Part shown: positions 3,078-30,567 of the stretch, in pieces
How the letters are laid out: each line of letters begins with the position of its first letter
Numbering within the stretch: the first letter of the stretch is position 1
IMG/VR virus record: IMGVR_UViG_2541047775_000008
Direction: 5' to 3' (one strand)
From: a virus
Lineage: Duplodnaviria > Heunggongvirae > Uroviricota > Caudoviricetes
DNA: 31,470 nt
Program-made: the position numbers and the translations under genes
Notes under the pieces: model-generated
What the model saw: only the letters and a program-made list of their open reading frames with translations
The model's database searches: none
What the model was told of the DNA's origin: nothing

Positions 3078-3302
3078 ATGCATACAGTTTCTGAAAATCA
3101 GTGCGGTATATACGCATTACTGCTGCAACAGGCCAGAACCGAAGCACAGGCCGACGCTGCGACGCGCTTTTCTTCTCATCTTGATGCCATGATTCGCCAC
3201 ATCACAAAGGCGGAGTTATCCCGCGTGGAGATAGTCGAGCTGCTCAGTCAGGAGTCGGAAAAATTTCACAATATCGGATTGTCTCGCGGGGAGGTGCTTT
3301 GA
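3078..3302 (+). CDS. Hypothetical early protein, 74 aa (position of P2 orf80)
   Basis: RBS GGAGAAAG upstream of ATG 3078; synteny. Confidence 0.55.
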
Positions 3303-9639: not shown

Positions 9640-11411
9640 CAGTAAAACTCCAGAATGGTGGATGTCAGCGGGGTGCTGATACCGGCGGTGAGTGGCTCAT
9701 TTAACAGGGCATGCATGGTCGCCCAGGCGAGGTCGGCGTGGCTGGCTTCCTCGCTGCGGCTGGCCTCATAGGTGGCGCTGCGTCCGCTGCTGGTCATGGT
9801 CTTGCGGATAGCCATAAACGAGCTGGTGATGTCGGTGGCGCTGACGTCATATTCCAGACAGCCACGGCGGATGACGTCTTTTGCCTTGAGCACCATTGCG
9901 GTTTTCATTTCCGGCGTGTAGCGGATGTCGCGCGCGGCGGGATAGAACGAGCGCACGAGCTGGAACACGCCGACACCGAGGCCGGTGGCATCAATACCGA
10001 TGTATTCGACGTTGTATTTTTCGGTGAGTTTGCGGATGGATTCCGCCTGGGTGGCAAAGTCCATGCCTTTCCACTGGTGACGCTCAAGTATTCTGAATTT
10101 GCCACCGGCCACCACCGGCGGTGCCAGTACCACGCATCCGGCGCTGTCGCCACGGTGTGACGGGTCGTAACCAATCCATACCGGACGTGAGCCGAACGGA
10201 TTGGCGGCAAACGGCGCATAGTCTTCCCATTCTTCCAGCGTGTCGACCATGCAGCGTTGCAGCTCCTCGAACGGGAACACCGACGCCTTGTCGTCAACAA
10301 ATTCACACATGAACAGGTTTTTAAAATCGTCGGCGCTGTTTTCGCGTTTGAGCTGTTCAATGTCGAACAGCGTGCAGCCGCCTTTCAGGGCGTCCTCAAT
10401 GGTGACAATCTGCCGCCACTGACCGTCCGCACAGAGAAGCCCTCCGGCAAGGGCGTTATGACTGACGTCGATTTCCACGCGTTCAGCGGCGCTGGCGCGT
10501 CCCCGGTTGAACAGTTCACCCGACCAGAACGGGTAGGCGTCGTGCGCCAGCGTGGACGGGGTGGAGAAATAGGTCGAGCGCAGGTGACTCTGTGAGGCCA
10601 TACCTGATGCCACCTTACGCAGTACCTGAAAATTCGGGATCCAGAAAATCTCATCGACGTACAGGTCGCCGTTATGACTCTGTGCGGTGTTGGAGTTGGT
10701 GCCGAGAAAAATCAGTTTTGCGCCGTTATTGCCCAGGACAATCGGGTCACCGGTCAGGTCAACGTCAACCAGACGGGCAAAGGCGATGATGTATTCACGG
10801 AATACATACGCCTGCGTTTTACTGGCCGACAGAAAAATCTGGTTATGACCGGTTTTCAGGGCGCGCAGCAGCGCCTCGCGGGAAAAATAAAACGTTGCGC
10901 CAATCTGACGGGATTTCAGGATATCGCGGATGCGGTGCTCAAGCCCGGCGCGATACCAGTGCAACTGATAGTCGAAAGACTGCTCAAAGAAAATCTGCTC
11001 CAGCTTTTCGATGGCCTCGTCACTGAAAAAATTCTTTTTCGGTTTGCGCCGCCCGCCTTTGTTGCGGTTAGCGACGTTCGGATTAAGGTCTGCCTCGTTG
11101 CCGGTCTGGCTGTAACGATTTACCCGTGCCAGTCGTTCAATCTGGCGTCCCAGCAGGTCAATTTCCTTGAAGTCACCGCCGGTTTTCTGCGGTTTGATGA
11201 TGAGCTGGGTCAGTCGCGCTTCCAGACTCATTTCGACACGGCTGATGGGGGCAACGCTGTCCCAGCCGTCGCGCTGTTTCCAGCTCTGCACCGTCGGGCG
11301 TTTCATCTGCAACATGGCGGCAATCTGCGGCACGGAAAACCCCTGCCAGTACAGCAGCGCCGCCTGACGACGCGGGTCGTGTAAAAGAGTGGTGTCTGTG
11401 GTGATGGTCAT
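9639..11411 (-). CDS. P: Terminase large (ATPase) subunit P, 590 aa
   Basis: Start MTITTDTTLLHD at 11411 with RBS GAGG; length equals P2 P. ORF-track start at 11441 is an extension. Confidence 0.9.
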   Translation of the reverse strand: MTITTDTTLLHDPRRQAALLYWQGFSVPQIAAMLQMKRPTVQSWKQRDGWDSVAPISRVEMSLEARLTQLIIKPQKTGGDFKEIDLLGRQIERLARVNRYSQTGNEADLNPNVANRNKGGRRKPKKNFFSDEAIEKLEQIFFEQSFDYQLHWYRAGLEHRIRDILKSRQIGATFYFSREALLRALKTGHNQIFLSASKTQAYVFREYIIAFARLVDVDLTGDPIVLGNNGAKLIFLGTNSNTAQSHNGDLYVDEIFWIPNFQVLRKVASGMASQSHLRSTYFSTPSTLAHDAYPFWSGELFNRGRASAAERVEIDVSHNALAGGLLCADGQWRQIVTIEDALKGGCTLFDIEQLKRENSADDFKNLFMCEFVDDKASVFPFEELQRCMVDTLEEWEDYAPFAANPFGSRPVWIGYDPSHRGDSAGCVVLAPPVVAGGKFRILERHQWKGMDFATQAESIRKLTEKYNVEYIGIDATGLGVGVFQLVRSFYPAARDIRYTPEMKTAMVLKAKDVIRRGCLEYDVSATDITSSFMAIRKTMTSSGRSATYEASRSEEASHADLAWATMHALLNEPLTAGISTPLTSTILEFY

Positions 11412-11479
11412 GAATACCTCGCCGTGATGAATACACGGCAAGGCTACTGAGTCGCGCCCCGCGATTCGCTAAGGTGCTG

Positions 11480-11498
11480 TTGTGTCAGTGATAAGCCA
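11480..11498 (+). promoter_or_regulatory. Candidate late-promoter upstream element for the O operon
   Basis: TTGTGTCA-N7-GCCA; a near-identical element occurs upstream of FI (23638..23656) and a related one upstream of V (17780..17798). Confidence 0.35.
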
Positions 11499-11584
11499 TC
11501 CGGGACTGATGGCGGAGGATGCGCATCGTCGGGAAACTGGTGCCGACATGTGACTCCTCTAATCACTATTCAGGACTCCTGACA

Positions 11585-12439
11585 ATGGCAAAAAAAGTCT
11601 CAAAATTCTTTCGTATCGGCGTTGAGGGTGACACCTGTGACGGGCGTGTCATCAGTGCGCAGGATATTCAGGAAATGGCCGAAACCTTTGACCCGCGAGT
11701 CTATGGTTGCCGCATTAACCTGGAACATCTGCGCGGCATCCTGCCTGACGGTATTTTTAAGCGTTATGGCGATGTGGCCGAACTGAAGGCCGAAAAGATT
11801 GACGATGATTCGGCGCTGAAAGGCAAATGGGCGCTGTTTGCGAAAATCACCCCGACCGATGACCTTATCGCGATGAACAAGGCCGCGCAGAAGGTCTACA
11901 CCTCAATGGAAATTCAGCCGAACTTTGCCAACACCGGCAAATGTTATCTGGTGGGGCTGGCCGTCACCGATGACCCGGCAAGCCTCGGCACGGAATACCT
12001 GGAATTCTGCCGCACGGCAAAACACAACCCCCTGAACCGCTTCAAATTAAGCCCTGAAAACCTGATTTCAGTGGCAACGCCTGTTGAGCTGGAATTTGAA
12101 GACCTGCCTGAAACCGTGTTCACCGCCCTGACCGAAAAGGTGAAATCCATTTTTGGCCGCAAACAGGCCAGCGATGACGCCCGTCTGAATGACGTGCATG
12201 AAGCGGTGACCGCTGTTGCTGAACATGTGCAGGAAAAACTGAGCGCCACTGAGCAGCGCCTCGCTGAGATGGAAAACGCCTTTTCCGCACTTAAGCAGGA
12301 GGTGACTGACAGGGCGGATGAAACCAGCCAGGCATTCACCCGCCTGAAAAACAGTCTCGACCACACCGAAAGTCTGACCCAGCAGCGCCGCAGTAAAGCC
12401 ACCGGCGGTGGCGGTGACGCCCTGATGACGAACTGCTGA
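11585..12439 (+). CDS. O: Capsid scaffold protein O, 284 aa
   Basis: Start MAKKVSKFF at 11585; length equals P2 O; coiled-coil-like C-terminus. Confidence 0.85.
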   Translation: MAKKVSKFFRIGVEGDTCDGRVISAQDIQEMAETFDPRVYGCRINLEHLRGILPDGIFKRYGDVAELKAEKIDDDSALKGKWALFAKITPTDDLIAMNKAAQKVYTSMEIQPNFANTGKCYLVGLAVTDDPASLGTEYLEFCRTAKHNPLNRFKLSPENLISVATPVELEFEDLPETVFTALTEKVKSIFGRKQASDDARLNDVHEAVTAVAEHVQEKLSATEQRLAEMENAFSALKQEVTDRADETSQAFTRLKNSLDHTESLTQQRRSKATGGGGDALMTNC

Positions 12440-12497
12440 CCGGTGTCAGTCAGTCCGGGAAAACCTTCACGATTAACCCTTAATTTCAGGAAAAACT

Positions 12498-13571
12498 ATG
12501 CGCCAGGAAACCCGCTTTAAATTTAATGCCTACCTGTCCCGTGTTGCCGAACTGAACGGCATCGACGCCGGTGATGTGTCGAAAAAATTCACCGTTGAAC
12601 CGTCGGTCACCCAGACCCTGATGAACACCATGCAGGAGTCCTCTGACTTTCTGACCCGCATCAACATTGTGCCGGTCAGCGAAATGAAAGGGGAAAAAAT
12701 TGGTATTGGTGTCACCGGCTCCATCGCCAGCACCAGCGACACCGCCGGTGGAACCGAGCGTCAGCCGAAGGACTTCTCGAAGCTGGCGTCAAACAAGTAC
12801 GAATGCGACCAGATTAACTTCGATTTTTATATCCGCTACAAAACGCTTGACCTGTGGGCGCGTTATCAGGATTTCCAGCTCCGTATCCGTAACGCCATTA
12901 TCAAACGCCAGTCCCTTGATTTCATCATGGCCGGTTTTAACGGCGTGAAGCGTGCAGAAACCTCTGACCGCAGCAGCAATCCGATGCTGCAGGATGTGGC
13001 GGTCGGCTGGCTGCAGAAATACCGCAATGAAGCCCCGGCGCGCGTGATGAGCAAGGTCACTGACGAGGAAGGGCACACCACCTCTGAGGTCATCCGCGTG
13101 GGTAAGGGCGGTGATTATGCCAGCCTTGACGCACTGGTGATGGATGCGACCAACAACCTGATTGAGCCGTGGTATCAGGAAGACCCTGACCTTGTGGTGA
13201 TTGTGGGACGTCAGCTACTGGCGGACAAGTATTTCCCCATCGTTAACAAGGAGCAGGACAACAGCGAAATGCTGGCCGCTGACGTCATCATCAGCCAGAA
13301 ACGCATCGGTAACCTGCCAGCGGTACGCGTCCCGTACTTCCCGGCGGATGCGATGCTCATCACGAAGCTGGAAAACCTGTCCATCTACTACATGGATGAC
13401 AGCCATCGCCGCGTGATTGAGGAAAACCCGAAACTCGACCGCGTGGAGAACTACGAGTCAATGAACATTGATTACGTGGTGGAAGACTACGCCGCCGGTT
13501 GTCTGGTGGAAAAAATTAAGGTCGGTGATTTCTCCACACCGGCCAGGGCGACCGCAGAGCCGGGAGCGTAA
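12498..13571 (+). CDS. N: Major capsid protein N, 357 aa
   Basis: Length identical to P2 N; synteny. Confidence 0.9.
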   Translation: MRQETRFKFNAYLSRVAELNGIDAGDVSKKFTVEPSVTQTLMNTMQESSDFLTRINIVPVSEMKGEKIGIGVTGSIASTSDTAGGTERQPKDFSKLASNKYECDQINFDFYIRYKTLDLWARYQDFQLRIRNAIIKRQSLDFIMAGFNGVKRAETSDRSSNPMLQDVAVGWLQKYRNEAPARVMSKVTDEEGHTTSEVIRVGKGGDYASLDALVMDATNNLIEPWYQEDPDLVVIVGRQLLADKYFPIVNKEQDNSEMLAADVIISQKRIGNLPAVRVPYFPADAMLITKLENLSIYYMDDSHRRVIEENPKLDRVENYESMNIDYVVEDYAAGCLVEKIKVGDFSTPARATAEPGA

Positions 13572-13574
13572 CCG

Positions 13575-14312
13575 ATGACGAGTCCCGCACAGCGCCACAT
13601 GATGCGGGTCTCGGCAGCGATGACCGCGCAGCGGGAAGCCGCCCCGCTGCGACATGCAACTGTCTATGAGCAGATGCTGGTTAAGCTCGCCGCAGACCAG
13701 CGCACACTGAAAGCGATTTATTCAAAAGAGCTTAAGGCCGCGAAAAAGCGCGAACTGCTGCCGTTCTGGTTGCCGTGGGTGAACGGTGTGCTGGAGCAGG
13801 GCAAAGGTGCACAGGATGACATTCTGATGACGGTCATGCTGTGGCGTCTGGATACCGGCGATATTGCCGGTGCGCTGGAGATTGCCCGTTATGCCCTGAA
13901 GTACGGTCTGACCATGCCGGGTAAACACCGCCGCACCCCGCCGTACATGTTCACCGAGGAGGTGGCGCTCGCGGCCATGCGCGCCCACGCTGCCGGTGAG
14001 TCTGTGGATACCCGCCTGCTGACGGACACCCTTGAACTGACCGCCGCTGCTGACATGCCTGATGAAGTGCGCGCAAAGCTGCACAAAATCACCGGTCTGT
14101 TTCTGCGTGACGCTGGTGATGCCGCCGGTGCGCTGGCGCACCTGCAACGTGCGACACAGCTCGACTGTCAGGCAGGCGTCAAAAAAGAGATTGAACGACT
14201 GGAGCGGGAACTGAAACCGAAGCCGCAGCCAAAAGCGGCCACCCGCGCCCCGCGTAAGACCCGGAGCGCGACACCGGCAAAACGTGGACGCCCGAAAAAG
14301 AAAGCCAGTTAA
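13575..14312 (+). CDS. M: Terminase small (endonuclease) subunit M, 245 aa
   Basis: Synteny and size (P2 M 247 aa); basic C-terminal tail. Confidence 0.85.
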   Translation: MTSPAQRHMMRVSAAMTAQREAAPLRHATVYEQMLVKLAADQRTLKAIYSKELKAAKKRELLPFWLPWVNGVLEQGKGAQDDILMTVMLWRLDTGDIAGALEIARYALKYGLTMPGKHRRTPPYMFTEEVALAAMRAHAAGESVDTRLLTDTLELTAAADMPDEVRAKLHKITGLFLRDAGDAAGALAHLQRATQLDCQAGVKKEIERLERELKPKPQPKAATRAPRKTRSATPAKRGRPKKKAS

Positions 14313-14411
14313 CAACCGAATGCGCCCCGCGCCAGGGCGGCACGCCGGTCAGTGAGGGTGAGTCACCTGACACTGCACCGGCGTCCACCGCCCGACTTTT
14401 CAGAGGTAGTC

Positions 14412-14921
14412 ATGATGACGCTGATTATTCCGCGAAAGGAGGCTCCCGTGTCCGGTGAGGGTACGGTGGTCATCCCGCAACCGGCAGGCGACGAGCCGGT
14501 GATTAAAAACACGTTCTTTTTTCCCGATATCGACCCGAAGCGCGTCCGGGAACGTATGCGCCTTGAGCAGACCGTCGCCCCCGCCCGTCTGCGTGAGGCC
14601 ATCAAGTCAGGCATGGCGGAGACGAATGCGGAGCTGTACGAGTACCGCGAACAGAAAATTGCCGCCGGTTTTACGCGTCTGGCGGACGTCCCGGCGGACG
14701 ACATCGACGGTGAAAGCATCAAAGTTTTTTACTACGAGCGCGCCGTGTGTTCGATGGCGACCGCGTCGCTTTATGAGCGTTATCGCGGCGTGGATGCCAG
14801 TGCGAAAGGCGACAAAAAGGCCGACAGCATAGACAGCACCATTGATGAGCTGTGGCGGGATATGCGCTGGGCAGTGGCGCGCATCCAGGACAAGCCGCGC
14901 TGCATCGTGAGTCAAATCTGA
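14412..14921 (+). CDS. L: Head completion protein L, 169 aa
   Basis: ATG 14412 with RBS GAGG; length equals P2 L. Confidence 0.85.
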   Translation: MMTLIIPRKEAPVSGEGTVVIPQPAGDEPVIKNTFFFPDIDPKRVRERMRLEQTVAPARLREAIKSGMAETNAELYEYREQKIAAGFTRLADVPADDIDGESIKVFYYERAVCSMATASLYERYRGVDASAKGDKKADSIDSTIDELWRDMRWAVARIQDKPRCIVSQI

Positions 14922-15124
14922 TGAAGACCTTTGCGCTACAGGGCGACACGCTCGACGCCATTTGTGTCCGGTATTACGGGCGCACTGAGGGCGTGGTCGA
15001 GGCCGTGCTCGCCGCAAATCCGGGACTGGCTGAACTGGGTGCGGTGCTGCCACATGGCACCGCCGTCGAACTGCCCGACGTTCAGACCGCGCCCGTGGCT
15101 GAAACTGTCAATCTGTGGGAGTAA
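14921..15124 (+). CDS. X: Tail protein X (LysM-like), 67 aa
   Basis: Start overlaps L stop (TGATG); length equals P2 X. Confidence 0.8.
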   Translation: MKTFALQGDTLDAICVRYYGRTEGVVEAVLAANPGLAELGAVLPHGTAVELPDVQTAPVAETVNLWE

Positions 15125-15127
15125 CGC

Positions 15128-15409
15128 ATGACAGCAGAAGAAAAAAGCGTCCTGTCGCTTTTCATGATTGGGGTGCTGATTGTTGTCGGCAAGGTGCTTG
15201 CCGGTGGTGAACCCATCACCCCGCGTCTGTTTATCGGGCGCATGTTGCTCGGTGGTTTTGTCTCGATGGTTGCCGGTGTTGTTCTGGTGCAGTTTCCTGA
15301 CCTGTCACTGCCTGCGGTGTGCGGCATCGGCTCCATGCTGGGTATCGCCGGTTATCAGGTGATTGAGATTGCCATTCAGCGCCGCTTTAAGGGCAGGGGG
15401 AAACAGTAA
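15128..15409 (+). CDS. Y: Holin Y, 93 aa
   Basis: Hydrophobic membrane protein with basic C-terminus, directly upstream of endolysin; length equals P2 Y. Confidence 0.85.
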   Translation: MTAEEKSVLSLFMIGVLIVVGKVLAGGEPITPRLFIGRMLLGGFVSMVAGVVLVQFPDLSLPAVCGIGSMLGIAGYQVIEIAIQRRFKGRGKQ

Positions 15410-15906
15410 TGCCGGTAATTAACACGCATCAGAATATCGCCGCCTTTCTCGACATGCTGGCCGTGTCCGAAGGGACGGCGAATCATCCGCTGACGAAAAA
15501 CCGGGGCTATGACGTGATAGTCACCGGACTGGACGGGAAGCCGGAAATCTTCACCGACTACAGTGACCACCCGTTCGCGCATGGCCGACCGGCGAAGGTG
15601 TTTAACCGTCGCGGTGAAAAATCCACGGCCTCCGGTCGCTATCAGCAGCTTTACCTGTTCTGGCCGCATTACCGCAAACAGCTTGCCCTGCCGGATTTCA
15701 GTCCGCTGTCACAGGACAGACTTGCCATTCAGTTGATCCGTGAACGCGGTGCACTGGATGACATCCGGGCGGGGCGCATTGAGCGCGCCATTTCACGCTG
15801 TCGCAATATCTGGGCGTCCCTGCCGGGTGCCGGTTACGGTCAGCGTGAGCATTCACTGGAAAAACTGGTCACCGTCTGGCGTACCGCTGGCGGTGTACCG
15901 GCTTAA
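15409..15906 (+). CDS. K: Endolysin K (lambda R-like lysozyme / transglycosylase), 165 aa
   Basis: AFLDMLAVSEGT...GYDVIV...FTDYSDHP...GRYQ...ALPDFSP...IWASLPGAGYGQ closely resembles lambda R; length equals P2 K. Confidence 0.9.
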   Translation: MPVINTHQNIAAFLDMLAVSEGTANHPLTKNRGYDVIVTGLDGKPEIFTDYSDHPFAHGRPAKVFNRRGEKSTASGRYQQLYLFWPHYRKQLALPDFSPLSQDRLAIQLIRERGALDDIRAGRIERAISRCRNIWASLPGAGYGQREHSLEKLVTVWRTAGGVPA

Positions 15907-15920
15907 ACGGAGTAAACACC

Positions 15921-16346
15921 ATGAAGAAATTATCCCTTTCACTGATGCTGAATGTGTCGCTGGCGCTGATGCTGGCACTGTCCCTGATTTACCCGCAGAG
16001 CGTGGCCGTCAATTTTGTCGCTGCCTGGGCGATTCTGGCGACGGTTATTTGTGTGGTTGCCGGTGGTATCGGCGTGTATGCCACTGAGTATGTGCTGGAA
16101 CGCTACGGGCGGGAGCTGCCGCCGGAATCGCTGGCCGTGAAGATTGTCGCGTCGCTGTTTTTGCAGCCGGTGCCGTGGCGCAGACGGGCGGCGGCTCTGG
16201 TGGTGATGGTGGCGACGTTTATCTCGCTGGTCGCTGCCGGGTGGATTTTTACCGCGCTGATTTACCTCGTGGCGTCGGTGTTCTTCCGGTTGATACGCAC
16301 GGCCTGTCGTCAGCGTTTTGAGGGGCGGGAACCATGTCAAAGCTGA
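15921..16346 (+). CDS. lysA: Lysis accessory membrane protein LysA, 141 aa
   Basis: Multi-pass hydrophobic protein, same length as P2 LysA. Confidence 0.8.
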   Translation: MKKLSLSLMLNVSLALMLALSLIYPQSVAVNFVAAWAILATVICVVAGGIGVYATEYVLERYGRELPPESLAVKIVASLFLQPVPWRRRAAALVVMVATFISLVAAGWIFTALIYLVASVFFRLIRTACRQRFEGREPCQS

Positions 16347-16759
16347 TGATTGTGCTGGTTGTGTTGTTATCACTGGCGGTGGCCGGTCTGTTTCTGGCGA
16401 AGCATGAAAACGCCAGCCTGCGCACCTCGCTGGACAGGGCGAACAACGTCGCCAACGGGCAGCAGACGACCATCACCATGCTGAAAAATCAGCTTCATGT
16501 TGCCCTCACCAGAGCAGACAAAAACGAGCTGGCGCAGGTGGCACTGCGTCAGGAACTGGAGAACGCGGCGAAGCGTGAAGCACAGCGCGAGAAAACCATC
16601 ACGAGGTTACTGAATGAAAACGAAGATTTTCGCCGCTGGTACGGCGCTGGCCTGCCTGATGCTGTGCGCCGGTTGCACCAGCGCCCGGCCTGCACCGACG
16701 CCAGTGATTGTCGCCAACGCCTGCCCGAAAGTGAGTCTTTGCCCGATGCCGGGCAGTGA
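16334..16759 (+). CDS. lysB: LysB (Rz-like inner-membrane spanin), 141 aa
   Basis: N-terminal TM segment then coiled-coil region; same length as P2 LysB. Confidence 0.8.
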   Translation: MSKLMIVLVVLLSLAVAGLFLAKHENASLRTSLDRANNVANGQQTTITMLKNQLHVALTRADKNELAQVALRQELENAAKREAQREKTITRLLNENEDFRRWYGAGLPDAVRRLHQRPACTDASDCRQRLPESESLPDAGQ

Positions 16760-16904
16760 CCCGGAGACGAACGGCGATTTAAGTGCCGATATCCGGCAGC
16801 TTGAGAACGCGCTGGCACGCTGTGCCAGCCAGGTAAAAATGATTAAACACTGTCAGGACGAAAACGATGCTCAAACCCGACAGCCTGCGCAGGGCGCTGA
16901 CTGA
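16614..16904 (+). CDS. lysC: LysC (Rz1-like outer-membrane lipoprotein spanin), 96 aa, nested out of frame in the 3' part of lysB
   Basis: Signal peptide with lipobox LCAGC; embedded in lysB in another frame; same length as P2 LysC. Confidence 0.75.
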   Translation: MKTKIFAAGTALACLMLCAGCTSARPAPTPVIVANACPKVSLCPMPGSDPETNGDLSADIRQLENALARCASQVKMIKHCQDENDAQTRQPAQGAD

Positions 16905-17334
16905 TGCCGTCACGGTGCTGAAAACCAGTCCCGAGATGCTGCGGATATTCGTGGATAACGGGAGTATTGCCTCCACACTGGCGACGTCGTTGTCATTCGA
17001 AAAGCGTTACACGCTCAATGTCATTGTGACCGACTTTACCGGTGATTTTGACCTGCTCATCGTGCCGGTGCTGGCGTGGCTGCGGGAAAATCAGCCCGAC
17101 ATCATGACCACCGACGAAGGCCAGAAAAAGGGCTTCACGTTTTATGCAGACATCAACAATGACAGCAGCTTTGATATCAGCATCAGCCTGATGCTGACCG
17201 AGCGCACGCTGGTCAGTGAGGTGGACGGCGCACTGCATGTGAAGAATATCCCGGAACCCCCGCCGCCGGAGCCGGTCACCCGCCCGATGGAGCTTTATAT
17301 CAATGGCGAACTGGTGAGCAAGTGGGATGAATGA
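16867..17334 (+). CDS. R: Tail completion protein R, 155 aa
   Basis: Length and synteny as P2 R. Confidence 0.85.
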   Translation: MLKPDSLRRALTDAVTVLKTSPEMLRIFVDNGSIASTLATSLSFEKRYTLNVIVTDFTGDFDLLIVPVLAWLRENQPDIMTTDEGQKKGFTFYADINNDSSFDISISLMLTERTLVSEVDGALHVKNIPEPPPPEPVTRPMELYINGELVSKWDE

Positions 17335-17779
17335 GTTTAAGCGTTTTGAAGACCGGCTGGCCGGACTGATTGAATCGCTGTCACCGTCAGGGCGTCGGCG
17401 ACTGAGTGCCGAACTGGCGAAACGTCTGCGGCAGAGTCAGCAGCGTCGGGTGATGGCACAGAAAGCCCCGGACGGCACACCCTATGCGCCACGCCAGCAG
17501 CAGAGCGCCAGAAAAAAGACCGGTCGTGTTAAGCGAAAAATGTTTGCGAAACTTATCACCAGTCGTTTTTTGCATATCCGCGCCAGCCCTGAACAGGCAT
17601 CAATGGAGTTTTACGGCGGAAAGTCACCGAAAATCGCCAGCGTGCATCAGTTCGGTCTGTCGGAAGAAAACCGGAAAGACGGTAAGAAAATTGATTATCC
17701 GGCGCGTCCTCTGCTCGGCTTTACCGGTGAGGATGTGCAGATGATTGAAGAGATTATCCTGGCTCACCTCGACCGTTAG
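17327..17779 (+). CDS. S: Tail completion protein S, 150 aa
   Basis: Length and synteny as P2 S. Confidence 0.85.
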   Translation: MNEFKRFEDRLAGLIESLSPSGRRRLSAELAKRLRQSQQRRVMAQKAPDGTPYAPRQQQSARKKTGRVKRKMFAKLITSRFLHIRASPEQASMEFYGGKSPKIASVHQFGLSEENRKDGKKIDYPARPLLGFTGEDVQMIEEIILAHLDR

Positions 17780-17845
17780 TTGTGCCATTCCCGACACCTC
17801 ATCGTCACATTGCCGCCGGTATGACCCGGCGGCATCCTTCCCGTT

Positions 17846-18481
17846 ATGAACACACTCGCAAATATTCAGGAACTCGCGCGCGCACTGCGCAACATGATCC
17901 GCACCGGCATTATCGTCGAAACCGACCTTAACGCCGGTCGCTGCCGTGTGCAGACCGGCGGCATGTGCACCGACTGGCTTCAGTGGCTGACCCATCGCGC
18001 CGGACGTTCGCGCACATGGTGGGCACCTTCCGTGGGGGAACAGGTGCTGATTCTGGCCGTGGGCGGTGAACTCGACACGGCGTTCGTTCTGCCGGGGATT
18101 TATTCCGGCGATAACCGCGCGCCGTCTGCGTCGGCGGATGCCCTGCATATCCGTTTCCCTGACGGGGCGGTGATTGAGTATGAACCCGAAACCAGTGCAC
18201 TCACGGTAAGCGGAATTAAAACGGCCAGCGTGACGGCTTCTGATTCTGTTACTGCCACGGTACCGGTGGTCACGGTGAAAGCGTCAACCCGTGTCACCCT
18301 GGACACACCGGAAGTGGTCTGCACTAACAAACTGACTACCGGCACGCTGGAAGTGCAGAAGGGTGGGACGATGCGCGGCAACATTGAACACACCGGCGGT
18401 GAACTCTCATCAAACGGTAAGGTACTGCATACCCACAAACACCCCGGCGACAGCGGCGGAACAACCGGGAGTCCTTTATGA
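17846..18481 (+). CDS. V: Baseplate spike / hub protein V, 211 aa
   Basis: Length and synteny as P2 V. Confidence 0.85.
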   Translation: MNTLANIQELARALRNMIRTGIIVETDLNAGRCRVQTGGMCTDWLQWLTHRAGRSRTWWAPSVGEQVLILAVGGELDTAFVLPGIYSGDNRAPSASADALHIRFPDGAVIEYEPETSALTVSGIKTASVTASDSVTATVPVVTVKASTRVTLDTPEVVCTNKLTTGTLEVQKGGTMRGNIEHTGGELSSNGKVLHTHKHPGDSGGTTGSPL

Positions 18482-18825
18482 CAGCGCGTTATCTCGGAAT
18501 GAATCGCAGTGATGGCCTGACTGTCACTGACCTTGAGCATATCAGCCAGAGTATCGGCGATATCCTGCGCACACCGGTCGGCTCACGGGTGATGCGTCGT
18601 GATTACGGCTCGTTGCTGGCATCAATGATTGACCAGCCGCAGACCCAGGCGCTTGAGTTGCAGATTAAGGTCGCCTGTTACATGGCGGTGCTGAAATGGG
18701 AACCCCGCGTCACCCTGTCATCCGTCACTACGGCGCGCAGTTTTGACGGGCGAATGACGGTCACGTTAACCGGCCAGCACAACGACACCGGCCAGCCACT
18801 TTCGTTAACCATCCCTGTGAGTTGA
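18478..18825 (+). CDS. W: Baseplate wedge protein W (gp25-like), 115 aa
   Basis: Length and synteny as P2 W. Confidence 0.85.
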   Translation: MTARYLGMNRSDGLTVTDLEHISQSIGDILRTPVGSRVMRRDYGSLLASMIDQPQTQALELQIKVACYMAVLKWEPRVTLSSVTTARSFDGRMTVTLTGQHNDTGQPLSLTIPVS

Positions 18826-18829
18826 AACC

Positions 18830-19738
18830 ATGCCGATTATCGACCTGAACCAGCTACCCGCACCGGATGTGGTCGAGGAGCTGGACTTTGAAACCATTCT
18901 CGCCGAACGCAAGGCGACACTGATTTCCCTTTACCCGGAAGACCAGCAGGAGGCGGTCGCCCGTACCCTGACGCTGGAATCCGAGCCTCTCGTCAAACTG
19001 CTGGAGGAAAATGCTTATCGTGAGCTTATCTGGCGTCAGCGTGTGAATGAGGCCGCACGGGCGGTGATGCTGGCCTGTGCCGCCGGTAATGACCTTGATG
19101 TGATTGGTGCCAATTACAACACCACGCGCCTGATTATCACCCCGGCAGATGATTCGACCCTCCCGCCGACACCGGCAGTGATGGAATCTGATACCGATTA
19201 TCGTCTGCGTATTCAGCAGGCGTTTGAAGGTTTAAGCGTCGCCGGGTCGGTGGGGGCCTATCAGTATCATGGTCGCAGTGCTGACGGGCGTGTCGCGGAT
19301 ATCTCTGTCACCAGTCCGTCTCCGGCCTGCGTCACCATCTCCGTGCTGTCACGTGAAAATAACGGCGTCGCATCCGAAGACCTGCTGGCCGTGGTGCGTA
19401 ACGCCCTTAATGGCGAGGACGTCAGGCCGGTGGCCGACCGCGTGACCGTGCAGTCTGCCGCCATCGTTGAATACCAGATAAACGCCACGCTGTATCTTTA
19501 CCCTGGTCCCGAAAGCGAACCCATTCGCGCTGCCGCCGTGAAAAAACTGGAAGCGTATATCACGGCACAGCACCGGCTGGGGCGCGACATCCGTCTGTCT
19601 GCCATTTATGCCGCTTTGCATGTGGAAGGCGTGCAGCGTGTCGAACTGGCTGCACCGCTGGCCGACATCGTGCTTAACAGCACGCAGGCGTCTTTCTGTA
19701 CCGAATACCGCGTCGTGACCGGAGGCTCGGATGAGTGA
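18830..19738 (+). CDS. J: Baseplate protein J, 302 aa
   Basis: Length and synteny as P2 J. Confidence 0.85.
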   Translation: MPIIDLNQLPAPDVVEELDFETILAERKATLISLYPEDQQEAVARTLTLESEPLVKLLEENAYRELIWRQRVNEAARAVMLACAAGNDLDVIGANYNTTRLIITPADDSTLPPTPAVMESDTDYRLRIQQAFEGLSVAGSVGAYQYHGRSADGRVADISVTSPSPACVTISVLSRENNGVASEDLLAVVRNALNGEDVRPVADRVTVQSAAIVEYQINATLYLYPGPESEPIRAAAVKKLEAYITAQHRLGRDIRLSAIYAALHVEGVQRVELAAPLADIVLNSTQASFCTEYRVVTGGSDE

Positions 19739-20342
19739 TTCGCGCCTGCTGCCGACCGGCTCATCACCACTTGAAGTCGCCGCCGCAAAAGCCTGTGCGG
19801 AAATTGAAAAAACGCCGGTCAGTATTCGTGAGCTGTGGAACCCGGATACCTGTCCGGCAAATCTGCTGCCGTGGCTGGCGTGGTCATTTTCGGTTGACCG
19901 CTGGGATGATAAGTGGCCGGAAGCGACAAAACGCGCTGTTATCCGCGATGCGTATTTCATTCACTGCCATAAGGGCACTATTGGTGCGATTCGCCGTGTG
20001 GTGGAGCCGCTCGGATATCTGATTGAGGTGAGGGAGTGGTGGCAGCTCAACGAGGAGCCGGGGACGTTCCGCATCGTTGTTGGCGTGCTTGAGCAGGGTA
20101 TTACCGAAGAAATGTATCAGGAGCTGGAGCGCCTCGTTGCTGATGCAAAACCGGCGAGCCGCCATCTGACGGGACTGGCTATCAGTTTAAGTACAACCGG
20201 CAACATTTTTGCCGGTGCGGGATGCTATCACGGTGACGCCCTGACGGTTTATCCCTACACCCCGGAGGCCATTATTGTCGGAGGGGATTATTTCCCGGCC
20301 TCGGCCATTCATTTAATTGATAACCTGAGAGTAAACGCATGA
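19731..20342 (+). CDS. I: Baseplate protein I, 203 aa
   Basis: N-terminus MSDSRLLPTGSSPLEVAAAKACAEIEK resembles P2 gpI; synteny. Confidence 0.85.
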   Translation: MSDSRLLPTGSSPLEVAAAKACAEIEKTPVSIRELWNPDTCPANLLPWLAWSFSVDRWDDKWPEATKRAVIRDAYFIHCHKGTIGAIRRVVEPLGYLIEVREWWQLNEEPGTFRIVVGVLEQGITEEMYQELERLVADAKPASRHLTGLAISLSTTGNIFAGAGCYHGDALTVYPYTPEAIIVGGDYFPASAIHLIDNLRVNA

Positions 20343-21535
20343 CAGTGAAATACTACGCCATTCTGACTAATCAGGGCGCAGCACGGCTGGCTAACGCGAC
20401 GATGCTCGGCAGTAAGCTGAATCTGACGCAAATGGCCGTTGGTGATGCGAATGGTGTCTTGCCGACACCAGACCCGGCACAGACAAAACTGATTAATCAG
20501 AAACGCATTGCACCGCTGAATCTTCTGAGTGTTGACCCGAACAACCAGAGCCAGATTATTGCGGAGCAAATCATCCCTGAGAACGAGGGCGGATTCTGGA
20601 TCCGTGAGATTGGGCTTTATGATGATGAAGGCGTACTCATTGCGGTGGCGAACTGCCCGGAAACGTACAAACCGCAGTTGCAGGAAGGCAGTGGTCGTAC
20701 CCAGACTATCCGCATGATTCTGGTTGTCACGAATACCGAAGCTATTACGCTGAAAATCGACCCGTCGGTGGTACTGGCGACCCGTAAATACGTGGATGAT
20801 GAAGTCCTGGAATTAAGGCTGTATGTGGATGACCAGATGAGAAAACACATTGCCGCACAGGACCCTCATACCCAGTATGCACAGAAACATAATCCGACAT
20901 TTACCGGAGAACCAAAAGCGCCGACGCCTGCCGCAGGAAATAACACCACGCGGATTGCGACCACTGAGTTTGTTCAGGCTGCTATTACCGCTCTGATTAA
21001 CGGCGCGCCTGCCACGCTGGATACACTGAAAGAAATTGCCGCAGCCATTAACAATGACCCGAAATTCAGCACCACCATTAACAATGCGCTGGCAGGTAAA
21101 CAACCGCTGGACAATACGCTGACTCATTTGAGTGGAAAGGATGTTGCCGGTCTTCTCGCATACCTTGGTTTGGGAGAGGCGGCAAAACGGGATGTGGGCA
21201 CAGGGGGGAATCAGATCCCGGATATGGGTAGTTTTGAATTCAGGAATGAACTGAATGAAGGATATGTACGGTTTCCTCAGAAATGGATGCTGCAATGGAA
21301 GAAAGTCTCTATTCCTGCAGCATCTGGTACTAAAGGGGCTACAGTATCAGCAAACTATTTAATCCCGTTCACATTAACGGTTATTGGGTCATGGGCCAAC
21401 GTTGAAAGCCGCACCATTAACGTGGCGGCGAGTCCGTTTGTCAGTGCATCTAATAACAATCTTTCTTCATTTCTTGCAACCAGTACATATACATCCAGCC
21501 AACTGGAAGTAATGGTGTATTCAATAGGGCGTTAA
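20339..21535 (+). CDS. H: Tail fibre protein H, 398 aa; constant N-terminal part joined to the currently expressed variable C-terminal cassette
   Basis: N-terminus resembles P2 gpH / Mu S (AVGDANGVLPTP...GGFWIREIGLYDDEGVLIAVAN). An inversion crossover site lies inside the gene at 21153..21178. Confidence 0.85.
   Translation: MTVKYYAILTNQGAARLANATMLGSKLNLTQMAVGDANGVLPTPDPAQTKLINQKRIAPLNLLSVDPNNQSQIIAEQIIPENEGGFWIREIGLYDDEGVLIAVANCPETYKPQLQEGSGRTQTIRMILVVTNTEAITLKIDPSVVLATRKYVDDEVLELRLYVDDQMRKHIAAQDPHTQYAQKHNPTFTGEPKAPTPAAGNNTTRIATTEFVQAAITALINGAPATLDTLKEIAAAINNDPKFSTTINNALAGKQPLDNTLTHLSGKDVAGLLAYLGLGEAAKRDVGTGGNQIPDMGSFEFRNELNEGYVRFPQKWMLQWKKVSIPAASGTKGATVSANYLIPFTLTVIGSWANVESRTINVAASPFVSASNNNLSSFLATSTYTSSQLEVMVYSIGR
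21153..21178. repeat. Left crossover site of the tail-fibre inversion (cix/gix-like, 26 bp)
   Basis: TTCTCGCATACCTTGGTTTGGGAGAG; its right half TTGGTTTGGGAGA is identical to the reverse complement of the site at 22996..23021. Confidence 0.6.
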
Positions 21536-21537
21536 TT

Positions 21538-21975
21538 ATGGAATTTTTATGGTCTCCCGCAAACCTGTCATTTTTTCCCGAGTCCCTAATACAGGAATAT
21601 ATCGATGCTGGCTGGGATTTATCAGATGCCGTTGCAATCAGCGATACCGTAAGAGCGGAATACGGTGGTGTATGGCCGCAGGGGAAAATTCTCTCCAGCG
21701 TGAATGGAATGCCAGCCTGGGCTGATATTCCACCGCCAACTCATGAGGAACAAATTGCCGCAGCCGAACTGGAAAAGCAGCAATTGATTGATCGGGTCAA
21801 CGAATACATAAACAGTAAGCAATGGCCTGGTAAAGCGGCGATTGGTCGTCTGAAAGGTGAGGAACTGGCACAATATAATTTGTGGCTGGATTATCTGGAT
21901 GCACTGGAAATGGTCGATATTTCCAGTGCTCCAGATATTGAATGGCCTACGCCTCCGGTAGTTCAGGCCAGATGA
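21538..21975 (+). CDS. G: Tail fibre assembly chaperone G, 145 aa (expressed orientation)
   Basis: Directly downstream of H; C-terminal motif DYLDALEMVDISSAPDIEWP is shared with the inverted paralog. Confidence 0.8.
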   Translation: MEFLWSPANLSFFPESLIQEYIDAGWDLSDAVAISDTVRAEYGGVWPQGKILSSVNGMPAWADIPPPTHEEQIAAAELEKQQLIDRVNEYINSKQWPGKAAIGRLKGEELAQYNLWLDYLDALEMVDISSAPDIEWPTPPVVQAR

Positions 21976-22549
21976 CATCCGGCGCGGTGCTGGTATCTGT
22001 TGCCACCACCGCGTCAATGTAATCCAGCACGGCGTTAAGTCGGGTTGTTTCTGCCAGCGTCAACTTCCGTCCGGCCTGTAATTTCAGCTGAATCAGACTA
22101 ATGGAAGCCATTGCTGCATCAATCAGTGACTGGCGCTGTGCTTCTGCCGCGTCTACTGCGGCACTATGCTGTGCCTCAGTATCCGTCACCCATTTCTCAC
22201 CATCCCATTTATCATATGGCGTTAACGGGGCGATAGTGGTTGTATTTTCAGGGTAATCACCCGGAGCTGTGATTTCTTTCGATTCTCCTGTTTCGGTGCT
22301 ATAGATGATTTCACCGCGATGGTCTGGCACATATTCCCATGAGTTAAAATCTGCAGAACGGCAGATTGCATAACCAGCTTTATGTGTAACTGGTGCATCT
22401 AAACAAGAACATGCCGGGATACCGACGCCAACCGCAAGATATTCAGTTGATGTGGAAATATATTCCCGCGTTTCACCATCATAATTATAAACGGTTATGT
22501 CTCCCGCTTTTATGGCAATGAGTTCGTTATTTAATACGGCTTTATTCAT
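21947..22549 (-). CDS. Alternative tail fibre assembly chaperone G', 200 aa (silent orientation)
   Basis: Convergent with G; C-terminus LDYIDAVVATDTSTAPDVIWP is homologous to the G C-terminus; 3' ends overlap by 29 bp. Confidence 0.75.
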   Translation of the reverse strand: MNKAVLNNELIAIKAGDITVYNYDGETREYISTSTEYLAVGVGIPACSCLDAPVTHKAGYAICRSADFNSWEYVPDHRGEIIYSTETGESKEITAPGDYPENTTTIAPLTPYDKWDGEKWVTDTEAQHSAAVDAAEAQRQSLIDAAMASISLIQLKLQAGRKLTLAETTRLNAVLDYIDAVVATDTSTAPDVIWPELPEA

Positions 22550-23021
22550 CAGGCAGCCCTCACGATATAATTAAAGGCAATGTTACGAGGTCGGTTTTCG
22601 TTTGCAGTTGGAACAACTCTGGAAGCATCGAATGTTACTCGCTTTGCATAACCACCGTTAATTGAATCAGATGAAGCAGCTCCGATGACGCTGGTTGTAA
22701 AAGCGCCAGAATCAGAAGGATAGGTATTAAACCTGACATCCACTAATGCACCAATTATATTTCGAATGGCATCGCCCTGTGATGAAAGCAAGCTACGGCT
22801 AGTATCTATTCCTCTTCCGTCATCCCAGCCACGAATAAACTCACCGCGTAAATCAGGCAATTTATTTGTCGGGTAAACTTTTGCCAGTTCCGGATACTCT
22901 TCGGCAGAAAAAGGCGCACCGTTGCATTTCAGCCAGCCTGTTGGCGGAGTGGCTGAAGGCCACGGAACAGGCACCCCAACAGGTAATGCAGAACCTTCTC
23001 CCAAACCAACGTTTATGAAAA
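22549..23021 (-). CDS. Alternative tail-fibre variable C-terminal cassette H' (promoterless, silent until inversion)
   Basis: Minus-strand ORF whose 5' end coincides with the right crossover site; would read ...LGLGEGSALPVG... after fusion to the H constant part. Typical tail-fibre C-terminal character. Confidence 0.7.
22996..23021. repeat. Right crossover site of the tail-fibre inversion (cix/gix-like, 26 bp)
   Basis: TTCTCCCAAACCAACGTTTATGAAAA; inverted relative to the site at 21153..21178. Confidence 0.6.
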
Positions 23022-23076
23022 TGCAGAGATAACGGGCAAGTGGCATCATCTCCGGTTTTTATTCAGGGGGATGCTC

Positions 23077-23670
23077 ATGCTTATTGGCTATGTACGCGTG
23101 TCAACAAATGACCAGAACACGGAATTGCAGCGTAACGCGCTGGAGTGCGCAGGATGTGAGCTGATTTTTGAGGATAAAATCAGCGGCACGAAGTCCGACA
23201 GGCCGGGGCTGAAAAAACTGCTCAGGACATTATCGGAGGGGGATACACTGGTAGTCTGGAAGCTGGACCGGCTGGGGCGTAGTATGCGGCATCTGGTCAT
23301 TCTGGTTGAGGAGCTGCGCGAACGCGGCATTAATTTTCGCAGCCTGACGGATGCCATTGATACCAGCACGCCGATGGGGCGTTTTTTCTTTCATGTGATG
23401 GGTGCCCTGGCTGAAATGGAGCGAGAACTCATTGTCGAGCGGACACGCGCCGGACTGGAAGCGGCCAGAGCTAAAGGTCGTATTGGTGGCAGGCGTCCGA
23501 AACTCACCGCGAGTGAGTGGGAGCAGGCCGGGCGGTTGCTGGCTGCAGGGGAATCACGTCAACGCGTGGCACTGATTTTTGATATTGGCCTGTCCACGCT
23601 CTATAAAAAATTCCCCGCCTCAGTGACAAAAAATAAATTGTGTCATCCCTTAGCCAACCGGGACAAATAG
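23077..23670 (+). CDS. Serine DNA invertase (Gin/Cin/Pin/Hin family), 197 aa
   Basis: N-terminus MLIGYVRVSTNDQNTELQRNAL with the catalytic serine motif; resolvase-like core; C-terminal HTH; RBS GGGGG upstream. Confidence 0.9.
   Translation: MLIGYVRVSTNDQNTELQRNALECAGCELIFEDKISGTKSDRPGLKKLLRTLSEGDTLVVWKLDRLGRSMRHLVILVEELRERGINFRSLTDAIDTSTPMGRFFFHVMGALAEMERELIVERTRAGLEAARAKGRIGGRRPKLTASEWEQAGRLLAAGESRQRVALIFDIGLSTLYKKFPASVTKNKLCHPLANRDK
23638..23656 (+). promoter_or_regulatory. Candidate late-promoter upstream element for the FI operon, located inside the 3' end of the invertase gene
   Basis: TTGTGTCA-N7-GCCA, the same motif as at 11480..11498, about 75-90 bp upstream of the FI ATG. Confidence 0.3.
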
Positions 23671-23729
23671 CCTGACATCTCCGGCACAACTGAAAATATC
23701 ACTCACCCATTAACCACGGAGTTAAACGG

Positions 23730-24920
23730 ATGAGTGACTATCATCACGGCGTGCAGGTGCTGGAGATTAACGACGGCACCCGCGTCATTTCCACCGTATC
23801 CACTGCCATTGTCGGCATGGTCTGCACGGCCAGCGATGCGGATGCGGAAACCTTCCCCCTCAATAAACCGGTGCTGATTACCAATGTGCAGAGCGCAATT
23901 GCAAAGGCCGGTAAAAAAGGCACGCTGGCGGCGTCGTTGCAGGCCATCGCCGACCAGTCAAAACCGGTCACCGTTGTCGTGCGTGTGGAAGACGGCACCG
24001 GCGACGACGAGGAAACGAAACTCGCGCAGACCGTTTCCAATATCATCGGCACCACCGACGAAAACGGTCAGTACACCGGACTGAAAGCCCTGCTGGCGGC
24101 GGAGTCGGTAACCGGTGTTAAACCGCGTATTCTCGGCGTGCCGGGACTGGACACCAAAGAGGTGGCTGTTGCACTGGCATCAGTCTGTCAGAAGCTGCGC
24201 GCTTTCGGGTATATCAGTGCATGGGGCTGTAAAACCATTTCCGAGGTGAAAGCCTACCGTCAGAATTTCAGCCAGCGTGAGCTGATGGTCATCTGGCCGG
24301 ATTTCCTCGCATGGGATACGGTTGCCAGTACCACCGCCACCGCGTATGCCACCGCCCGTGCGCTGGGTCTGCGTGCCAGAATCGACCAGGAGCAGGGCTG
24401 GCATAAAACGCTGTCCAACGTCGGGGTGAACGGTGTTACCGGCATCAGCGCATCTGTATTCTGGGATTTGCAGGAGTCCGGCACCGATGCTGACCTGCTG
24501 AATGAGTCAGGCGTCACAACGCTGATTCGCCGTGACGGTTTCCGCTTCTGGGGTAACCGTACCTGCTCTGATGACCCGCTGTTCCTCTTTGAAAACTACA
24601 CCCGCACCGCGCAGGTGCTGGCCGATACGATGGCTGAGGCGCACATGTGGGCGGTGGACAAGCCCATCACCGCAACGCTGATTCGCGACATCGTTGACGG
24701 CATCAATGCCAAATTCCGTGAGCTGAAAACAAACGGCTATATCGTGGATGCGACCTGCTGGTTCAGCGAAGAATCCAACGATGCGGAAACCCTCAAGGCC
24801 GGAAAACTGTATATCGACTACGACTATACCCCGGTGCCTCCTCTCGAAAACCTGACCCTGCGCCAGCGTATTACCGATAAATACCTGGCAAATCTGGTCA
24901 CCTCGGTTAACAGCAATTAA
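23730..24920 (+). CDS. FI: Tail sheath protein FI, 396 aa
   Basis: Length identical to P2 FI; RBS GGAG; synteny. Confidence 0.9.
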   Translation: MSDYHHGVQVLEINDGTRVISTVSTAIVGMVCTASDADAETFPLNKPVLITNVQSAIAKAGKKGTLAASLQAIADQSKPVTVVVRVEDGTGDDEETKLAQTVSNIIGTTDENGQYTGLKALLAAESVTGVKPRILGVPGLDTKEVAVALASVCQKLRAFGYISAWGCKTISEVKAYRQNFSQRELMVIWPDFLAWDTVASTTATAYATARALGLRARIDQEQGWHKTLSNVGVNGVTGISASVFWDLQESGTDADLLNESGVTTLIRRDGFRFWGNRTCSDDPLFLFENYTRTAQVLADTMAEAHMWAVDKPITATLIRDIVDGINAKFRELKTNGYIVDATCWFSEESNDAETLKAGKLYIDYDYTPVPPLENLTLRQRITDKYLANLVTSVNSN

Positions 24921-30112: not shown

Positions 30113-30331
30113 ATGTTTCATTGTCCTTTATGCCAGCATGCCGCACATGCGCGTACAAGCCGCTATATCACTGACACGACAAAAGAGCGTTATCACCAGT
30201 GCCAGAACGTGAATTGCAGCGCCACGTTCATCACGTATGAGTCGGTACAGAGATACATCGTGAAGCCGGGAGAAGTCCACGCCGTAAGGCCGCACCCGTT
30301 GCCGTCAGGGCAGCAAATTATGTGGATGTGA
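30113..30331 (+). CDS. ogr: Late-gene transcriptional activator Ogr (zinc finger), 72 aa
   Basis: MFHCPLCQHAAHARTSRYITDTTKERYHQCQNVNCSATF... with a C-x2-C...C-x4-C zinc-binding arrangement; matches my recollection of P2 Ogr. ORF-track start at 30050 is an extension. Confidence 0.9.
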   Translation: MFHCPLCQHAAHARTSRYITDTTKERYHQCQNVNCSATFITYESVQRYIVKPGEVHAVRPHPLPSGQQIMWM

Positions 30332-30367: not shown

Positions 30368-30459
30368 ATGGTCGATGTGGACGCTATGTGGACAGTGGTT
30401 GACATAAATCCATTTATATCATCAGGTTAGGTGCTTTTTTGTGACACCATCCCTGTCTT

Positions 30460-30487: not shown

Positions 30488-30567
30488 TCCTCAATTTGCC
30501 TGCTGCTTAATGCATTGCAGATGATTTGCTTCCGTTATACTAGCGTCAGTTGATAGCGGGAGTATTT

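Follow-up and report, generated by a model that had tools for sequence, protein, structure and literature searches.

Activation of the late promoters of phage P2 depends on Ogr, which binds to inverted repeats whose centre is near -55 and for which contact with the α-subunit of RNA polymerase is required (PMC3152322), and a consensus TGT-N12-ACA has been given for the four promoters PP, PO, PV and PF (PMC3931495). These promoters are annotated, following Christie & Calendar 1985, in the P2 reference record NC_001895, and the present comparison is based on the RefSeq annotations of P2 and of phage 186, together with secondary statements in PMC3931495, PMC3152322, PMC5694545 and PMC4633059.

The window, the whole stretch of 31,470 nucleotides analysed here, is a P2-like prophage, bounded by int on the left and by a host cation-efflux gene on the right. 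Its late operons P-Q, O to S, V to G and FI to D, delimited by the list of open reading frames and by homology to P2, each have an upstream element. The three elements of a preliminary description, which had taken them for Ogr-activated late promoter sites, are present at the positions it gave, as read directly from the window (Table 1), and the activator gene is present as well, encoding a protein identical to P2 Ogr and recognized by the Pfam family Ogr_Delta (PF04606; E = 1.1e-21). With a probability of roughly 0.92, as judged from sequence comparison, the three elements are the Ogr binding sites of the four late promoters of this prophage, so that the earlier interpretation is supported. 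Ogr sites at P2 late promoters are already known biology, which makes the assignment correct but ordinary.

Table 1. Late promoter elements and associated features of the prophage (positions in the window)
Feature	Position	Strand	Details
Putative shared Ogr activator site of divergent pO (rightward) and pP (leftward)	11480-11498		TTGTGTCAGTGATAAGCCA, read from the window; TGT-N12-CCA; identity with the P2 feature
pO core	11533-11545	+	-10-like GAAACT 11533-11538; predicted start 11545
pP core	11434-11446	-	-10-like TAGCCT (minus strand) 11441-11446; predicted start 11434
Candidate pV activator site	17780-17798	+	TTGTGCCATTCCCGACACC, read from the window; conserved half TTGTGCCA; weak promoter-proximal half (ACC at N12)
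GC-rich hairpin, 9-bp stem	17811-17834	+	between V site and -10-like hexamer
pV core	17833-17848	+	-10-like CATCCT 17833-17838; V ATG 17846 as predicted leaderless start
Gin-like serine DNA invertase gene	23077-23670	+	reading frame open from 23071; Met3 (23077) aligned to residue 1 of Gin
Putative pF Ogr activator site	23638-23656	+	TTGTGTCATCCCTTAGCCA, read from the window; TGT-N12-CCA; P2-annotated site corresponds to 23633-23661
pF core	23692-23706	+	-10-like GAAAAT 23692-23697; predicted start 23704-23706
ogr, zinc-finger late-gene activator	30113-30331	+	72 aa; 100% identical to P2 Ogr

Comparison with the mapped P2 promoters establishes homology for the O/P site and, in part, for the F site, both of which lie within P2 features annotated as activator binding sites, but not for the V site. 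The P2 feature at 3057-3087 ('activator binding site; pO, pP promoters') maps to window positions 11475-11505 with 31 of 31 bases identical, within a P-O intergenic region that matches P2 at 173 of 174 positions. A leftward element for the P-Q operon had been reported as missing; it is the O element itself, as the P2 record lists a single site for the two promoters pO and pP. The centre of this site, at 11489.5, is 55.5 bp from each of the two homologous starts, which were carried over from P2 positions 3127 (offset 8418) and 3016 (minus strand). At pF, where the corresponding P2 activator feature spans 17555-17583, identity to P2 amounts to 78 of 80 positions from 23650, that is the right half of the site and everything downstream, to the FI ATG; it extends from TTAGCCA over both the -10 hexamer and the start, with TTGTG kept in register. 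The centre of the FI site lies 56.5-58.5 bp upstream of the homologous pF start, carried over from P2 17626-17628 with an offset of 6078, and (A/T)TGT is found 90-92 nt before the FI ATG in 10 phages. Across relatives, all three elements keep both their motif and their position.

The -10-like hexamers GAAACT, TAGCCT, CATCCT and GAAAAT are weak and lack a -35 consensus, and a sigma-70 scan returned no -35/-10 pair in 11400-11600, 17650-17900 or 23560-23740. Each site, an imperfect dyad of the TGT-N12-ACA type, would have its centre some 55-58 bp before a start with a weak -10 and no -35. By analogy with established P2 work, Ogr bound there would recruit RNA polymerase via the α C-terminal domain and so turn on the late operons P-Q, O-S, V-G and FI-D in the late phase of infection. 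The first site would then serve the divergent promoters pO and pP, the second would drive a leaderless V transcript, and the third would drive the F operon while also being translated as the C-terminal tail of the invertase.

The exact pattern of the preliminary description matches only at the three sites when both strands are considered, with 0.07 matches expected; as it had been fitted post hoc to these same sites, a comparison of its enrichment is circular. Relaxed versions are no commoner than in shuffled sequence (TTGTG-N11-CCA, 2 matches versus 1.40 expected; TTGTGY-N10-MCM, 3 versus 2.59), which would be in line with a threefold motif that is nothing but a coincidence of post hoc pattern choice, yet every one of their matches is one of the three promoter sites. 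The 8-mer TTGTGYCA occurs once more, within a tail-fibre assembly gene (21866-21873, minus strand), and this copy is without the right half. Enrichment was dropped as an argument and replaced by position and by independent weight matrices; the weight of evidence is the location of the matches, not their number. A matrix of five sites, none from the window, was built from P4 Psid and PLL, 186 pV/p12 and pJ, and P2 pV, the three sites of 186 and P2 being annotated in the records and the two of P4 having been chosen for the perfect TGT-N12-ACA dyads that precede sid and ORF88. Among 62,904 positions it places FI first, O second and V 75th, and a 13-site matrix from other phages gives 1, 3 and 6 respectively, so that matching is strong for the O and FI copies and weaker for V. 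With all matches at the three positions predicted by the P2 annotation, and with matrices built without the window sites placing them at or near the top, coincidence is effectively refuted. Other high-scoring matches (16820-16838, 4439-4457, 30389-30407 and 23671-23689) have the wrong geometry or are intragenic and were taken as chance, and at 23671-23689 the TGT becomes TGC in P2.

The perfect dyad TGT-N12-ACA is absent from all three sites, which each have five of the six dyad bases, O and F reading TGT-N12-CCA and V reading TGT-N12-ACC. In the window it has just two matches (1529-1546 and 30387-30404; 8.05 expected by chance), both away from the late promoters, so that it is of little use for detecting such sites in this phage.

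The V copy is the one part of the verdict that we infer. Its description as a related element stands for the left TTGTG, which is conserved among V-type promoters, but not for the right half CACC, which finds no support; in the V-type promoters of relatives TTGTG alone is conserved and the promoter-proximal half is not. No homology links the V copy to the mapped P2 pV, as in P2 the orf30 insert has taken the place of the entire S-V spacer. TTGT nevertheless begins 66 nt ahead of the ATG of V in five spacer types that are not alignable with each other, those of the window and Wphi, P2, R18C, Kp4886-2 and 186, and 65 nt ahead in several 186-like phages of the SW9 type. The R18C insert, like the P2 orf30 insert, would bring a non-homologous pV with TTGT at the same -66. 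That the V copy is unusually near the start codon was correctly seen, and follows from a P2 V transcript that starts at the ATG: the P2 record puts the V transcription start at the first base of the coding sequence, and PMC4633059 lists P2 with the small number of leaderless genes known from E. coli, referring to Christie & Calendar 1985. No Shine-Dalgarno sequence is visible before V in the window, and the centre of the V site is 56.5 bp from the V ATG, a distance that counts as the start distance provided that transcription begins at the ATG, as it does in P2. The window shares a conserved -10-like sequence, GGCATCCTT, with R18C, Kp4886-2 and most 186-type phages; phage 186 has GGCATTCTT instead.

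The pV spacer of the window also contains a strong hairpin (-22.1 kcal/mol for the fold of 17777-17850), which was counted against the main reading. It is kept in R18C and Kp4886-2, while 186-type phages have a different hairpin, and the O operon probably has its 3' end or terminator here; no T-run follows the hairpin, and the scan called no canonical terminator between S and V despite its strength. In phages without orf30, this probable O-operon 3' hairpin would lie inside the pV spacer. A hairpin that is not called as a terminator and has no T-run makes plausible that transcripts from pO read through into V, in which case the O/P and FI sites would be real while the V copy would be a chance or vestigial match, and V-G expression in phages without orf30 would come mainly from read-through. 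The rank of only 75th in the strict matrix, the lack of conservation of the proximal half-site and the 186 record, which has no annotated promoter upstream of orf32, point in the same direction. Such an explanation is nonetheless unlikely, since TTGT, which occupies only about 0.3% of the window positions, recurs at -66 or -65 in five mutually non-alignable spacers, including that of P2 with its annotated pV and start, and since GGCATCCTT is conserved at the right distance and the missing Shine-Dalgarno sequence fits a leaderless V. The preferred reading of the V copy as the candidate pV site would allow pV of the common P2-like phages without orf30 to be annotated by the fixed -66 TTGTG.

The FI copy was said to sit at the end of the invertase gene, and it overlaps codons 190-196 (counted from 23071), part of a C-terminal tail that follows the last of the Pfam domains (Resolvase, residues 5-137; HTH_7, residues 140-183); residues 3-184 align to residues 1-182 of Mu Gin. 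The tail over the pF site looks dispensable. The related proposal that the inversion module had left the promoter intact gains support from a remnant invertase in a 186-like phage, which has the same arrangement and ends at the same TAG. The overlap occurs in 603 of 5,426 complete E. coli genomes (about 11%), and is a compact case of a promoter element which also serves as coding sequence. The stretch of the invertase open reading frame that runs through the pF site may be a backbone-specific tail, with a conserved TAG of the promoter as its end in two phage genera. A Gin/Hin-type crossover site (gix/hix), which would be one of a pair of inverted sites of about 26 bp flanking an invertible segment, was considered for the FI copy and rejected, as the copy has no inverted partner and is located at the opposite end of the invertase gene; crossover-like inverted repeats are found elsewhere, at 21153-21178 and 22996-23021.

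In BLAST comparisons, homology begins exactly at 23638 for Wphi, fiAA91-ss and Salmonella SW9 and PHB48, and at 23650 for P2, although P2 retains TTGTG in register. Homology thus breaks right at the FI element or within it (23638 and 23650), and likewise at the borders of the S-V spacer, as would be expected if the elements were conserved mainly as recombination junctions, that is as microhomologies for swaps of the invertase, Z/fun and orf30, and not as promoter elements. This is very improbable: the motif is also present between P and O, a region free of module junctions, its distance to transcription starts is fixed, and it matches annotated 186 B-protein and P2 activator sites. Clustering of junctions is in any case expected if cargo is tolerated only up to the edge of an essential promoter, and is then a consequence of promoter function. 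With the elements regarded as promoter sites, it is conceivable, if rather doubtful, that cargo exchange in P2-like phages repeatedly ends exactly at, or rebuilds, the TTGTG half-site of a late promoter, creating dual-use sequences, should these be real and functional. Such dual use, of promoter as coding sequence and of promoter as terminator, could tie transcription of the invertase or the O operon to the activity of late promoters.

Beyond correct annotation the significance of these sites is small. It was possible for a reader of the sequence alone to recover the Ogr sites of a P2-like prophage, and the piece added here is that pP and pO use a single site.

In comparison with P2, the window shares the activator, the four operons, the geometry and a P/O site which is identical across the whole 31-bp feature, while the spacer of the pF site reads TCATCCC in the window and CTGTCGA in P2, the region upstream of pF holds the invertase gene instead of the terminator plus Z/fun, and the pV region is wholly non-homologous, since S and V are separated in P2 by orf30, which brings a terminator and a promoter of its own. 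In phage 186 one B-protein site is common to the divergent pV and p12, like the O/P site of the window, and the B-protein sites TTGTGTGGGCGGTTGTCCA and TTGTGCCAGACATCATCCA have the form TTGTG...N...CCA with the same TGT-N12-CCA frame as the O and F sites. Spacing there is 57.5 bp at pJ, where the start is annotated, and 55.5 bp at p12 and 56.5 bp at pV if the features end at +1. A TTGTG is located 66 nt upstream of orf32, the V homologue, and p32 is reportedly a B-dependent late promoter of 186, as work of Portelli and co-workers from 1998 is said to have described. Phage 186 differs in its spacer sequences, in its activator B, and in the sequence and position of the O-orf32 hairpin.

P4, as a satellite phage, is a different kind of genetic element. 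Its Psid contains TGTGTCAGGGCTGGCACA, in which TGTGTCA...ACA shares the left 7-mer of the preliminary description, and Psid and PLL, which are activated by delta or Ogr, are perfect TGT-N12-ACA dyads, whereas the window sites have five of the six dyad bases. The Ogr fold, a C4 zinc finger, is unrelated to that of CRP, and site and spacing differ, but as a purely mechanistic analogue the class I arrangement of CRP at lac likewise combines an upstream activator with a promoter lacking a good -35 and acts via the α-subunit of RNA polymerase (PMC3152322).

The three 19-mer elements upstream of O, V and FI, which a preliminary description had put forward as candidate sites of the late activator Ogr, were read directly from the window at exactly the positions assigned to them, and this role is supported by the mapping of the O/P and F copies into activator sites annotated in P2 (NC_001895). 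With the integrase gene at its left edge and a host cation-efflux gene at its right edge, the window is a P2-like prophage integrated in a host genome; a 401-base P-O region shows 99.5-99.8% identity with many P2-like phages (Peduovirus).

Coordinates of the late-promoter elements and associated features in the window
Feature	Position	Strand	Remarks
Integrase gene	1-1191	minus	left edge of window
pP homologous start	11434	-	transferred from P2
pO/pP activator site	11475-11505		mapped from P2 3057-3087; O copy inside
O copy	11480-11498
pO homologous start	11545	+	transferred from P2
V copy	17780-17798
GC hairpin	17811-17834		9-bp stem, TGCCGCCGG-TATGAC-CCGGCGGCA; between V site and -10-like hexamer
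Gin-like serine invertase ORF	23071-23670		Pfam Resolvase 5-137, HTH_7 140-183
pF activator site	23633-23661		P2 17555-17583 with offset 6078
FI copy	23638-23656
pF homologous start	23704-23706		P2 17626-17628 with offset 6078
ogr	30113-30331		product 100% identical to P2 Ogr; Pfam Ogr_Delta match
Host cation-efflux (fieF-like) gene	30550-31470		right edge, after ogr and att region

The P-O intergenic region (11412-11585) is identical to P2 at 173 of 174 positions, with an offset of 8418. In the P2 record, 3057-3087 bears the label "activator binding site; pO, pP promoters", and transcription starts are given at 3016 (minus strand) for the P operon and at 3127 for the O operon; the TGT-N12-CCA centre of the O copy, 11489.5, lies 55.5 bp from both homologous starts. 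As the single pO/pP site of P2 maps onto the O copy, the leftward element for the P-Q operon, previously searched for without success, is the O copy itself, which serves both divergent promoters. Phage 186 likewise has a single B-protein site, GTTGTGTGGGCGGTTGTCCA, annotated "for activation of pV and p12".

At FI, the window matches P2 at 78 of 80 positions from 23650 (TTAGCCA...) to the FI ATG; leftward of 23650 the sequences are unrelated and differ at 36 of 50 positions. Despite this unrelated flank, P2 pF, with its activator site at 17555-17583 and its start at 17626-17628, keeps TTGTG in identical register (TTGTGCTGTCGATTAGCCA). BLAST homology to Wphi, fiAA91-ss, P24B2, SW9 and PHB48 starts precisely with the initial T of the element (23638) and amounts to 78% identity for the Salmonella phages SW9 and PHB48. 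When ten phages with differing upstream cargo are anchored on the FI ATG, (A/T)TGT stands 90-92 nt upstream and (A/C)CA at N12; a perfect TGT-N12-ACA is present at pF in SW9, PHB48 and Kp4886-2. The 186 pJ site has the same geometry to its annotated start as pF, 57.5 bp. Downstream of the element, GACAAATAGCC (23661-23671; approximately -43 to -33 of pF) provides the invertase stop codon and is near-invariant in Peduovirus and Eganvirus pF regions, Kp4886-2 excepted.

The FI copy forms codons 190-196 (L-C-H-P-L-A-N) of the invertase, of which residues 3-184 align to Mu Gin residues 1-182, and falls in the 15-residue tail past the last Gin-alignable residue. In the 186-like phage vB_EcoM-613R3 (L010 1-308), a 104-aa invertase remnant, apparently internally deleted, likewise continues across the pF site of its own phage, which is of 186 type (ATGTGTCAGACATCGCCCA), and ends at the same TAG, in conserved ACAAATAGCC; the tail is thus simply whatever the backbone promoter sequence encodes. 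Overlap with the post-Gin tail and this parallel support the earlier proposal that the inversion module left the late promoter undisturbed. The junction of invertase and pF, counted at >=80% of a 171-bp query, is found in 603 of 5,426 complete E. coli genomes. Gin-type crossover-like inverted repeats (25 nt, 80% complementary) at 21153-21178 and 22996-23021 bound a ~1.87-kb invertible tail-fibre segment, with the invertase gene just outside; since they are located there, the FI copy is not a recombination site. P2, Wphi, 186, SW9 and others carry a GGCGGGC...GCCCGCCTTTTCTTT terminator directly upstream of the pF site, whereas between the tail-fibre genes/invertase and pF of the window no strong rho-independent terminator was found (21976-23637), so that transcripts of the V operon or the invertase may read through into the F operon.

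By alignment, the V copy has no P2 counterpart: homology stops at the S stop codon and restarts at the V ATG, because in P2 the orf30 insert (P2 9368-10307, compared with window 17780-17845), with its own terminator and own pV, replaces the whole S-V spacer. What supports this copy is the position of its TTGT, a tetramer that occurs at only ~0.3% of window positions: the distance from its first base to the V ATG is 66 nt in the window/Wphi type, P2 (inside its annotated activator site 10239-10266), R18C, Kp4886-2 and 186, and 65 nt in SW9, PHB48, Midge, EtG, PSP3 and MHG7, the sequence between TTGT and ATG being otherwise non-alignable. R18C has a different insert, which yet ends in its own TTGTGTCA at -66. 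In the P2 record, V transcription starts at the first base of the coding sequence, and PMC4633059, referring to Christie & Calendar 1985, counts P2 as one of the few cases of leaderless genes in E. coli. No Shine-Dalgarno sequence was seen before V of the window; conserved GGCATCCTT places a -10-like CATCCT at -13 to -8. With the ATG taken as start, the V copy is 56.5 bp away, and we infer that it is the pV activator site; its unusual closeness to the start codon, already remarked upon, is explained by a putative start coinciding with the ATG, as annotated in P2. The CACC previously given as its right half is probably not meaningful, since the promoter-proximal half (ACC) is not conserved among V-type promoters.

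The hairpin embedded in putative pV, which is not followed by a T-run, is probably the 3' end of the O operon, as a terminator or 3' stabiliser. In R18C it is retained with two changes, one compensatory and one wobble, and Kp4886-2 likewise retains it; in 186-type phages its place is taken by another GC hairpin, of 10 bp and situated further upstream, and P2 has none at the matching position.

The initial pattern, TTGTG(T/C)CA-N7-(G/C)(C/A)C(A/C), matches at the three places only, against 0.07 expected, a circular comparison as the pattern had been fitted to these sites. Relaxed patterns show no excess over shuffled sequence (2 matches where 1.40 were expected, and 3 where 2.59 were), but every match is one of the three elements; it is thus the location of matches, not their number, that counts. 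A weight matrix of five sites from other phages (186 pV/p12, 186 pJ and P2 pV as annotated in their records, P4 Psid and PLL chosen as perfect dyads upstream of sid/ORF88) ranked the FI, O and V copies 1, 2 and 75 among 62,904 positions; with a 13-site matrix the ranks were 1, 3 and 6. The second-best score of the latter went to CTGTGCCAGCCAGGTAAAA at 16820-16838, 29-47 nt ahead of the start codon of R and overlapping the place where P2 has its annotated O-operon 'attenuator' (P2 8399-8417); this geometry does not fit a promoter of the Ogr type. Only two perfect TGT-N12-ACA dyads occur in the window, at 1529-1546 and 30387-30404, fewer than the 8.05 (sd 2.99) that shuffling predicts; the second is situated beyond ogr, within the att region, and neither is at a late promoter.

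No sigma-70 -35/-10 pair was detected in any of the three promoter regions, as expected for activator-dependent promoters. Late-gene expression of P2-related phages depends on Ogr (PMC5694545), which binds conserved inverted repeats centred around -55 and requires contact with the RNA polymerase alpha subunit (PMC3152322); TGT-N12-ACA is common to all four P2 late promoters (PMC3931495). Ogr of the prophage would bind the three predicted sites and activate the late promoters via the alpha subunit. Sequence comparison thus supports the elements as the known set of P2 Ogr-dependent late promoter sites, of which the O/P and F sites are nothing new but already known P2 biology, and to which the V site would be, at most, an ordinary addition.
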